DNA of 64,000 nt, taken from the NCBI GenBank assembly GCA_016871275.1, contig VFZG01000016.1:2045-66044 (forward strand), written 5' to 3'. How positions within the stretch are numbered: the stretch's first letter is position 1; each line of letters opens with the position of its first letter. This DNA is from Acidimicrobiia bacterium (GTDB lineage Bacteria > Acidobacteriota > Vicinamibacteria > Vicinamibacterales > UBA2999). The translations under genes and the position numbers were made by a program. Below are positions 31,872-33,956 of the stretch, piece after piece. The notes under the pieces are model-generated. The model ran no database searches. It had not been told where the DNA came from and worked only from the letters and a program-made list of their open reading frames with translations.

Positions 31872-33956
31872 TCAGTGCGTCACCTGCTGATCCGGCTTCG
31901 CCTTTTTCAACCCCTGAATCTGGATGACCGGACCGGCCGGCTTCTCCTTCAGCACGTGCTGCCGATACAGGGCTTCCATCTCGGCGTGCTTCTTGAGTTC
32001 CTCGGGCGACATGTCCTTCTTCTTGCGCGCCTGGATCTTCTCGTCGCGGGAGTTCTTGGCGATGCCCAGCTGGTCGAGGTCGGTCTGCGCGCCCTTGGCC
32101 ACCGCTTCGGCGTTGAGCGTGAGCGAATGCTCGGTTGACGACAGCGGCACCGGCTTGTTGCCGGCGAAGATTTCATGGCGGCCGTGCTCGTCGTACCACT
32201 TGGTGAGCGTCGCCGTCATGTGCATCTTCTCGATGATGTTCCGCCAGCCGATGCCGGTGTTGTAGGCGCAGAAGGAGATCTCACCCATCTGCGTCGCATA
32301 CGGGATGATGCACATCTCGGTGCGGCGGAAGTCGTAGTTGAACAGGTCCTGGAACCACATGCCGGCGATGAACAGGAAGTTCCAGCGGTCGGCGCGGCGC
32401 CGGTCGATATCCGCCCTGGTGCGCGTGCCGTCAACCTTGCCGTAATCGTGGCTGGTGGCGCCGAAGGTTTTGTTGAACTTCTTCAGCAGGTCGGACACCT
32501 TGAAGTGCGTCGGCGCCTGGAAGGGATCGTAATTGCGCATCAGCGCCAGCGACATGCCCAGGATCGTCAGGAATCGCCCGCGGGAAGCGTCGTTGACCGC
32601 CGCGACATCCCGGGCCAGCTGTTCGCCCTTCAGGAACGCCGTCACCGGCACCGCTTCCTTGGTCTCCTTGTCGATCATCATCGCCATGCCGATGCCGCAG
32701 TTCGGGTGGCATCCGCAGGACAGGTTGCCCCATTCCGTCTCAGGACCCTTGGCCAGGTCGGCCCAGTCCGTGAACGTGCTCACGAACGAGATCGGGAACC
32801 AGTCGCGGGTCGGTTCGCCGAGCCCGGTCTGGTTCTTCACGTCATGCGCCAGGTGCGACAGGGTGTAACGCTGCGCGGCGCGCCGCTCGGGCGTCACCTC
32901 CTCGTCGCGGCCCGTAAAGCTCACCGGCTGAAAGGAGAGGAAGCTGATCTTCTTGGGGTTGTCGAGCGCGAACTCGATCACCCGTCCGACCTGCTCGTTG
33001 TTCACGCCGTTGACGATGGTGATGACCGGGACGATGTCGACGCCGGCGTTGTGCAGGTTTTCGATGGCGCGCAGCTTGACGTCGAACAGGTTGCCGACGC
33101 GGCGATGCGAGTTGGCGGCGTTGCCGATGCCGTCGAACTGCAGGTAGGCGAAGCGCAGGCCGGCCTCGGCCGCCGCCTTGGAGAAGTCGGGGCTCTTCGC
33201 GAACTCGATGCCGTTGGTCGCGGCCTGCACCGAGTTGTAGCCGACCTTCCGCGCGTAGCGCACCGCGTCGAGGAAGTACGGCGACAGCGTCGGCTCACCG
33301 CCGGAGAACTGCACCGACATCTGGCGCTTCGGCTTGATGGTGATGGCGTTGTCGAGCACGGTCTTGATGTCGTCCCACGTGAGCTCGTGCACGAAGCCCA
33401 CCTGGTTGGCGTCCATGAAGCACGGGTCGCACATCATGTTGCAGCGGTTGGTGAGGTCGACCGTCAGCACCGAGCCGCGGCCGTACTTCACCGTGCTGCT
33501 GCCGTGGTTGTGCAGCTTCTCGTCGTTGTGGGCGCGGATGTCGCGGCCGGGGAACACCTCTTCAAGGTGCTTGAAGAACGCGGTGTCGATCGCCATCACG
33601 TCCTCGAAGTGGCCGTGCAGCGGGCAGTCCTTGAGCATGACGATCTTGCCGTCCTTCTCGGTGATCGTGGCCTTGATTTCGCCCACCTTCTCGTTGAGCA
33701 GCGTCTCGAGCGGGCGCGTGCCGTCGAGAATCGCCTGGCGCGCTTCGCGCACGCAGGTCGGGCAGAGCGAGTCGGTCTGGCGCGGCCACCCCAGTGGCGG
33801 CTTGGTCTTTTCGTGTGACTTGAGCACCGGCTTATCCGACCAGTTCGGTATCATGGACGGATTGGGGCTGATCTTGTTGAGGCGCGAGAAGACCTGCCAC
33901 ATCCCGTTGGCGGCAATCGACAGCCCCTTCTCGGCGTATTTGATCGGCGCGTGCAT
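31872..33956 (-). CDS. radical SAM enzyme, Tes/GDGT-MAS-like (candidate membrane-spanning lipid synthase)
   Basis: 694 aa. N-terminal zinc-ribbon/rubredoxin-like SLCPTC...DGKIVMLKDCPLHGHF. Radical SAM CX3CX2C (TNRCNMMCDPCF) and SGGEPT. Extra Cys clusters at SCGCHPNCG and FCAYN. Lys-rich C-terminal tail. AGGAGA Shine-Dalgarno. Confidence 0.6.
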   Translation of the reverse strand: MHAPIKYAEKGLSIAANGMWQVFSRLNKISPNPSMIPNWSDKPVLKSHEKTKPPLGWPRQTDSLCPTCVREARQAILDGTRPLETLLNEKVGEIKATITEKDGKIVMLKDCPLHGHFEDVMAIDTAFFKHLEEVFPGRDIRAHNDEKLHNHGSSTVKYGRGSVLTVDLTNRCNMMCDPCFMDANQVGFVHELTWDDIKTVLDNAITIKPKRQMSVQFSGGEPTLSPYFLDAVRYARKVGYNSVQAATNGIEFAKSPDFSKAAAEAGLRFAYLQFDGIGNAANSHRRVGNLFDVKLRAIENLHNAGVDIVPVITIVNGVNNEQVGRVIEFALDNPKKISFLSFQPVSFTGRDEEVTPERRAAQRYTLSHLAHDVKNQTGLGEPTRDWFPISFVSTFTDWADLAKGPETEWGNLSCGCHPNCGIGMAMMIDKETKEAVPVTAFLKGEQLARDVAAVNDASRGRFLTILGMSLALMRNYDPFQAPTHFKVSDLLKKFNKTFGATSHDYGKVDGTRTRADIDRRRADRWNFLFIAGMWFQDLFNYDFRRTEMCIIPYATQMGEISFCAYNTGIGWRNIIEKMHMTATLTKWYDEHGRHEIFAGNKPVPLSSTEHSLTLNAEAVAKGAQTDLDQLGIAKNSRDEKIQARKKKDMSPEELKKHAEMEALYRQHVLKEKPAGPVIQIQGLKKAKPDQQVTH

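Follow-up and report, generated by a model that had tools for sequence, protein, structure and literature searches.

Which enzyme joins two lipid tails into the core of the membrane-spanning lipids of Acidobacteria, and is a candidate for it encoded in the DNA studied here? The window, by which we mean the whole analyzed stretch of 64,000 nucleotides (nt) from contig VFZG01000016.1 (GC content 64-67%), belongs to an acidobacterial host that is Vicinamibacterales-like by its nearest relatives, consistent with the Acidobacteria-like origin presumed in the initial annotation of this DNA. According to the list of open reading frames (ORFs), it contains at 31872..33956 on the minus strand a complete coding sequence for a protein of the radical S-adenosylmethionine (SAM) class that comprises 694 amino acids (aa), with an ATG start and the stop codon at 31872-31874. 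The protein resembles the archaeal tetraether lipid synthase Tes, also described as GDGT-MAS (MJ0619 of M. jannaschii), which joins two lipid tails into one membrane-spanning lipid.

The initial annotation had described bacterial Tes homologs as proposed, but not demonstrated, enzymes for such lipids, which matches the literature (PMC8941075, PMC10087280, PMC11868695, PMC13459092). [quoted passage not shown] This hypothesis was then elaborated for Solibacter usitatus (PMC10087280), and it still counts as unconfirmed in a paper from 2025 and in a review from 2026 (PMC11868695, PMC13459092). Because the functional idea was published in 2022 and later elaborated, the window protein does not represent a new kind of system. 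What we did not find stated in the literature searched is that a widespread acidobacterial homolog constitutes a separate subfamily that lacks one of the iron-sulfur clusters of Tes ([Fe4S4]N), possesses its own terminal extensions and is exceptionally conserved.

Family assignment and predicted fold

Searching Pfam, we detected a radical SAM domain (Radical_SAM, PF04055, residues 168-330, E 3e-18) preceded by a zinc ribbon (Zn_ribbon_HMPTM, PF23545, residues 58-122, E 8e-13). The best match among the NCBIfam models was NF045702, the equivalog model of the tetraether lipid synthase Tes. The profile comparison recommended by the initial annotation hence led to Tes, though the score of 303.1 bits stays below the curated cutoff of 450 bits. 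The second match, to the TrsS model NF045646, reached 202.7 bits against a cutoff of 490 bits. All other NCBIfam models cover the radical SAM core only, among them SPASM and maturase models with E-values of 1e-6 to 1e-19. Because these models match nothing but the core, we rejected an assignment to the cofactor maturases, SPASM proteins, MoaA or NirJ-type proteins. The protein does not fall into an unrelated radical SAM subfamily such as the cofactor maturases, the outcome that the initial annotation had named as speaking against its proposal.

Comparison with solved structures by phmmer returned the GDGT-MAS structure 7TOL over residues 93-578 (E 9e-61), followed by MoaA with an E-value of 1e-5. 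An AlphaFold2 model computed from an alignment of 32 sequences (alignment A1) reached a predicted local distance difference test score (pLDDT) of 84 and a predicted template modeling score (pTM) of 0.85. Foldseek with this model retrieved 7TOM/7TOL with E-values of 1e-34 to 1e-35 and target template modeling (TM) scores of 0.86-0.87 over 553-563 aligned columns. GDGT-MAS was the sole full-length structural match; the next one was MoaA (E 1e-8, core only), and the remaining matches span ~220-370 columns of the radical SAM core. Judged from the model, the protein is predicted to adopt the GDGT-MAS fold including its lipid-pocket domain. The window family and MJ0619 share 30-34% identity. The protein is a Tes/GDGT-MAS homolog, yet no canonical Tes.

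Cofactor sites, clade and terminal extensions

GDGT-MAS harbors three [Fe4S4] clusters and a rubredoxin-like iron (PMC9433317). We rebuilt residues 15-484 of MJ0619 from the printed alignment and aligned them with the window protein and further representatives. Conservation was determined among 76 acidobacterial orthologs, in which all 11 cysteines of the window protein are invariant; the coordinates of its parts given below all refer to the minus strand.

The rubredoxin-like site of GDGT-MAS is formed by C9-x2-C12-x20-C33-x2-H36 (PMC9433317). The window protein has this C2-C-H site within a rubredoxin-like/zinc-ribbon module at residues 59-122 (33591..33782), the region matched by PF23545. 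Here, a first pair of ligands (C65-P-T-C68) is followed by C111 and H114 (C111-P-L-H114-G-H-F), which align to C33 and H36, and all four ligands are invariant. The initial annotation was right to read this CPxC...CPxHGHF arrangement as an N-terminal metal-binding module. Its two halves are separated by a helical insert of ~22 residues, yielding a spacer of 42 residues compared to 20 in MJ0619.

The radical SAM core follows at residues 168-330 (32967..33455). Its CX3CX2C motif, C172-NMM-C176-DP-C179 (33420-33443), had been recognized from the sequence as CNMMCDPC and aligns to C98/C102/C105 of GDGT-MAS. Residues 161-180 around it are 96% conserved.

In GDGT-MAS, the C-terminal cluster [Fe4S4]C is bound by three cysteines and a labile methionine, Met439, and carries a C-S intermediate, while the strictly conserved Tyr459 lies beside the substrate terminus (PMC9433317). 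The corresponding auxiliary-cluster and lipid-pocket domain of the window protein (residues ~385-580, 32217..32804) retains C420/C549/C563 for C338/C455/C470, M533 for Met439 and Y553 for Tyr459, all of them invariant. The motifs C414-G-C416-HPN-C420 and F-C563-AYN had initially been taken to suggest auxiliary clusters in the plural; both are present, but support was obtained for one auxiliary cluster only. C414, C416 and H417 are additional invariant residues, the latter also in 32/32 sequences of alignment A1.

The exception is [Fe4S4]N, bound in GDGT-MAS by C73/C77/C80 and a conserved histidine (PMC9433317) in the arrangement C-x3-C-x2-C-x2-H. In the window protein, C73/C77/C80/H83 are replaced by K147/H151/S154/K157, and no cysteine occurs between residues 111 and 172, neither here nor in any of the 76 orthologs. 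Since these ligands are missing, one [Fe4S4] cluster fewer is predicted for the protein than for GDGT-MAS: two rather than three, in addition to the mononuclear site. The comparison of cluster ligands with the GDGT-MAS structure, also recommended initially, accordingly gave agreement for the radical SAM cluster, [Fe4S4]C and the rubredoxin-like site, but not for [Fe4S4]N. In place of the missing motif, the cysteine-free linker at residues 140-160 (33477..33539) carries an invariant His-rich loop, H143-x5-H149-x-H151, together with D145/E146. With a pLDDT of 54-61 this linker is the only poorly predicted internal segment of the AlphaFold2 model. The loop may bind a metal in a site of another kind, or it may serve in docking.

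An HMMER search that exhaustively covered 1.8 billion cluster representatives yielded 602 matches at E ≤ 1e-30. The full-length representatives split into two groups, one with the motif C-P-x-x-C-G-x-C-x-x-H (called [N+] in the following) and one without it ([N-]). The motif was present in 10/10 [N+] sequences of the alignment, MJ0619 included. The three [N+] proteins scored with NF045702 (P0183, P0186 and P0190) reached 474-516 bits and pass its cutoff, whereas the [N-] representatives, at 171-414 bits, fail it. In a neighbor-joining tree based on 489 columns, the cluster-less proteins were grouped with a bootstrap value of 99 apart from the Tes group containing MJ0619, with P0135 in an intermediate position. 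The cluster-less clade is mainly acidobacterial, and the window family lies inside it, where it forms a compact subclade (bootstrap value of 100) whose branches are very short. The phylogenetic comparison suggested at the outset therefore supports relatedness to Tes, but in a separate clade. The Tes/GDGT-MAS architecture originally claimed for the protein stands with regard to homology, fold and catalytic residues; it does not extend to the [Fe4S4]N ligands, the family cutoff or the clade.

Both termini are extended. The N-terminal extension (residues 1-58, 33783..33956), which canonical Tes lacks, consists of a helix at residues 3-28 (pLDDT 86-94), moderately amphipathic with a hydrophobic moment of 0.38-0.46, and the block W39-SD..P..LKS...K.KPPLGWPR. 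It is common to the [N-] clade and missing from most [N+] Tes representatives. On the other side, the GDGT-MAS alignment stops at residue 578, leaving a C-terminal extension of ~110 residues. Residues 581-600 are ~91% conserved and in parts common to the wider clade. A charged tail follows (residues 600-694, 31875..32159), with the blocks GIAKN-R-EK--AR and M--LYR-HVLKE between variable linkers. Residues 601-640 are moderately conserved, and residues 641-694, which are variable and differ in length, were modeled with low confidence. Within the tail, the pLDDT falls below 50 at residues 626-638 and 667-694. Tail identity is 0.27-0.65 with gaps, and the tail comprises 45-155 residues in the orthologs. 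The Lys-rich C-terminal extension of ~90 aa described initially exists and is Lys-rich in the window copy (K 14.7%, K+R 17.9%, compared to 12% K+R in the core), but the tail of the family as a whole is of mixed charge (K+R 17%, D+E 16%). In an ortholog on the Vicinamibacterales chromosome OZ241898.1 (locus L024, 8001-10178), a low-complexity insertion of ~40 Gly/Asn/Ala residues separates semi-conserved tail blocks; the tail linkers thus appear to be freely expandable.

Distribution, proposed reaction and alternatives

In a scan of one genome per species, at least 599 stretches were confirmed as relatives; the following results on distribution and gene neighborhood refer to the best 80 loci. 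Their proteins are 74-90% identical to the window protein. They come from Vicinamibacterales (the closest; subdivision (SD) 6), Bryobacterales (SD3), Terriglobales/Acidobacteriaceae including the cultured Acidipila rosea (WP_131997391.1; SD1), Blastocatellia (SD4) and generic Acidobacteriota, with a few loci probably representing mis-binned metagenome-assembled genomes. The family was single-copy in every locus examined. Its 90% clusters comprise hundreds to thousands of metagenome sequences. A protein with 100% identity to that of the window is encoded on 10 public metagenome contigs, including those of the JGI metagenomes 3300020214 and 3300020074 and the JGI contigs Ga0194132 and Ga0194113. 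A related metagenome-assembled genome of the Ga01941xx series bears the title M_DeepCast_100m, which suggests that the source is the water column of a stratified freshwater lake, perhaps Lake Tanganyika. NCBI names the family “radical SAM protein”, whereas IMG uses “uncharacterized radical SAM...”, “tetraether lipid synthase” or a legacy pterin methyltransferase name.

The function we consider most likely, with a probability of about 0.55, is the tail-to-tail C-C coupling of iso-branched lipid chains into the core of iso-diabolic acid (iso-DA) and brGDGTs. What the analysis shows is the homology, the fold, the conserved ligands, the place of the protein in its clade and the taxonomic distribution; substrate, product and each step of the chemistry are inferred. 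As in GDGT-MAS, the CX3CX2C cluster (C172/C176/C179) would reductively cleave SAM, and the resulting 5′-deoxyadenosyl radical would take a hydrogen from an iso-branched C15 chain of a glycerolipid, at the chain's terminal methyl carbon. The C-terminal [Fe4S4] cluster (C420/C549/C563, with the labile M533 and with Y553 nearby) would hold the lipid radical in the form of a C-S adduct. A second SAM-derived radical, acting on the second chain, would then lead to attack on the adduct carbon and to the C-C bond, giving the core of iso-diabolic acid (13,16-dimethyl-octacosanedioyl), on which brGDGTs and the membrane-spanning lipids of bacteria are built. Two [Fe4S4] clusters and the rubredoxin-like site would suffice for this reaction, compared to three clusters in GDGT-MAS. 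Docking to the membrane may be a role of the amphipathic N-terminal helix and of the charged tail. In contrast to the archaeal enzymes, the host is a bacterium with ester-linked iso-branched fatty acids instead of phytanyl ethers.

Several lines of evidence argue for coupling. The radical SAM cysteines, the three [Fe4S4]C cysteines, M533 and Y553 are all retained, that is, every catalytic determinant named for GDGT-MAS (PMC9433317). The termini of phytanyl and iso-acyl chains are structurally identical (PMC8941075), and the GDGT-MAS active site binds bacterial ester phospholipids (PMC9433317). The family occurs in SD1, 3, 4 and 6, exactly the subdivisions for which iso-DA has been reported (PMC13159169, PMC13274423). 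Edaphobacter aggregans makes iso-DA and brGDGT and is reported to have a single Tes homolog, with 32% identity and an E-value of 4e-61 (PMC8941075), which is the identity class of the window family.

The reaction proposed here has been demonstrated for another radical SAM enzyme. Mss of Thermotoga maritima and Thermoanaerobacter ethanolicus couples two fatty-acyl tails into diabolic-type diacids, and no Mss homolog was found in Acidobacteria (PMC13159169). By its description, Mss is set apart from the window protein, as it is only remotely related to Tes and restricted to anaerobes. The homologs of Ca. Koribacter versatilis and Ca. Solibacter usitatus are closer in kind: they are acidobacterial, belong to the same superfamily and are subject to the same published brGDGT hypothesis. 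With 40-42% identity to the Methanosarcina Tes and E-values of 1e-139 to 1e-149 (PMC8941075), they are, compared by their published description, nearer to the archaeal Tes, whereas the window family corresponds to the distant E. aggregans class.

A number of results weigh against the proposed coupling function. The protein fails the Tes cutoff, lacks the [Fe4S4]N ligands and belongs to a distinct clade; therefore, its function may have diverged. Within the cluster-less clade, P0136 (Terriglobus roseus WP_014786616.1), P0151, P0184 and P0145 no longer have the Met, the Tyr or the cysteines of [Fe4S4]C. Because of this loss, these lineages probably do something else, being either non-catalytic or endowed with a new function. 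With the A. rosea ortholog as query, the relatives found are almost exclusively metagenome proteins, and those found with P0121, the nearest outgroup and 63% identical to the window protein, are labeled no finer than “Acidobacteriota”, a level at which the non-producing SD8, 10 and 23 are not separable from the producing subdivisions. No lipid gene is a conserved neighbor in the 80 loci, and we found no experiment on any bacterial Tes homolog in the literature searched. S. usitatus possesses two Tes homologs, and the role of tetraether synthase could fall to the other of the two (PMC10087280). Finally, a published screen with a cut-off of ≥30% identity detected Tes homologs in just 3/14 iso-DA-producing Acidobacteria (PMC13159169). 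This is weak counter-evidence, because the cut-off sits at the identity of the family itself, and this closeness to the threshold may explain the low count.

Rather unlikely, but the best surviving alternative, is that the protein uses the same fold and radical chemistry for a different job, acting on another hydrophobic substrate or with a different outcome. Such an outcome could be the intramolecular macrocyclization of a single diacylglycerolipid, a cross-linking reaction or C-S chemistry with another lipid as the target. The membrane-spanning lipid would then be made by the canonical, presumably [N+] Tes paralog reported in Koribacter and Solibacter or by an unknown enzyme. The separate clade (bootstrap 99), the score under the Tes cutoff and the lost cluster fit this alternative, as do the two Tes homologs of S. 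usitatus and the closer homologs (40-42% identity to archaeal Tes) of Koribacter and Solibacter. For an enzyme modifying lipid tails, conservation of 74-90% across classes is unusually high, and GDGT-MAS itself yields both a macrocyclic and a tetraether product. Against it, the residues defining the C-C coupling site (the Met, the Tyr and those of [Fe4S4]C) are all kept, E. aggregans makes iso-DA and brGDGT with only one reported Tes homolog, of this identity class, and the gene context points to no alternative substrate.

A much weaker case can be made for a pterin C-methylase, 7,8-dihydro-6-hydroxymethylpterin dimethyltransferase (HMPTM), which was the original annotation of MJ0619 and which we regard as very improbable. 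Several orthologs are labeled in this way in IMG. In addition, 8 Vicinamibacterales-like loci and that of P0121 (L009-L012, L015, L019, L020, L029 and L085) have folE, the gene for GTP cyclohydrolase I, in convergent orientation to the Tes-like gene; in the window, folE is found at 22191-22739 on the plus strand, 9 kb from the Tes-like gene. FolE is, however, a housekeeping enzyme of the folate/queuosine pathways. Its synteny is limited to one lineage and its orientation is convergent, not co-transcribed. As folE is absent from this position in the Terriglobia, Bryobacterales and Blastocatellia loci, we read the arrangement as synteny, not as function. Moreover, in the study of the GDGT-MAS structure the pterin activity could not be reproduced, and a long hydrophobic tunnel with bound lipids was observed (PMC9433317).

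Least probable of all is membership in a maturase-type radical SAM family, be it that of the TrsS (seleno)protein or another one: TrsS has the N-terminal ribbon and the radical SAM core in common with the protein and is the second-best NCBIfam match, but the 203 bits are far under the cutoff of 490 and under the protein's own Tes score, canonical Tes proteins reach an even higher 310-340 bits on the TrsS model, so that the match reflects shared ancestry only, the SPASM and maturase models cover the core alone, and no peptide or partner gene was found near the Tes-like gene in the window or the 80 loci. TrsS membership was therefore rejected on its score below the NF045646 cutoff.

Returning to tail-to-tail coupling, we suggest more tentatively that the acidobacterial clade could be the iso-diabolic-acid/brGDGT core synthase of aerobic soil and lake Acidobacteria, operating with a reduced cofactor set of two [Fe4S4] clusters and a rubredoxin-like iron. 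If so, the third cluster would be dispensable for Csp3-Csp3 coupling, with the surface-exposed [Fe4S4]N replaced by the invariant His-rich loop, and its loss may be an adaptation to oxic life. brGDGTs rank among the most widely applied proxies of palaeotemperature and pH on land and in lakes. The family is a good target in this respect: it is single-copy, extremely conserved, abundant in metagenomes and present in the iso-DA subdivisions, and it keeps the catalytic residues of archaeal Tes. Were it the synthase, it would provide a direct genetic marker for producers of the brGDGT core in metagenomes and a natural test of which metallocofactors are indispensable to Tes.

Gene neighborhood and surrounding window

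The Tes-like gene has its own Shine-Dalgarno sequence, AGGAGA (33963-33968, minus strand), 6 nt 5′ of the ATG, as read from the sequence. Upstream, a gap of 171 nt separates it from a divergent amidohydrolase gene; downstream, a gap of 301 nt is followed by a DUF485/ActP-type symporter pair. Around the gene, searches for Rfam families, tRNAs, sigma-70-like promoters and same-strand terminators gave no match. Its GC content at third codon positions (GC3) of 0.93 is the top value among the substantial genes in the window and suggests a native gene with strong codon bias and high expression.

For the wider comparison, all ORFs of the 80 related loci and the window were clustered. There was no conserved partner gene, as no neighbor family occurred in more than 11 loci. 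In agreement with the initial description, the Tes-like gene is solitary. The recurrent neighbors, proteins resembling MsrP/MsrQ as judged by eye, an amidohydrolase and FolE, all represent lineage-specific synteny. We also inspected the loci of the outgroup relatives P0135, P0121 and P0145 for lipid genes. A gene for an AMP-binding (acyl-activating) protein lies directly upstream of the P0145 gene (locus L086), which itself encodes a protein without the catalytic cluster, and a 2-oxoacid dehydrogenase cluster is located 6.6 kb from the P0121 gene; both were judged uninformative.

The window genes near the Tes-like gene encode, according to Pfam, transporters, TonB-dependent receptor-like proteins and proteins of amino-acid and acyl-CoA metabolism; no tetraether, ether-lipid or fatty-acid-synthesis genes were among the window genes annotated by Pfam. 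After the DUF485-ActP pair follows a gene for a VTT/DedA-domain membrane protein (29191-29750, minus strand), which corresponds to the gene at 7209-7766 in L082/L083. DedA-family proteins have been implicated in lipid flipping. A conserved association of this gene with the Tes-like gene was not seen in the other loci. About 10 kb from the Tes-like gene, an isocitrate/isopropylmalate dehydrogenase-family gene, a thiolase gene and a 3-hydroxyacyl-CoA dehydrogenase gene are arranged consecutively (18264-21403, plus strand), resembling a cluster for acyl-CoA or branched-chain catabolism; no link to the Tes-like gene was established. An ORF of 936 aa with high GC3 (48579-51389, minus strand) gave no Pfam match at E ≤ 1e-4. 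Three large genes for outer-membrane proteins (15012-18053, 22900-25737 and 40739-43954, all on the minus strand) combine CarboxypepD_reg, Plug and beta-barrel domains in a TonB-dependent receptor-like manner, an arrangement typical of Acidobacteriota and in agreement with the taxonomic assignment of the window.

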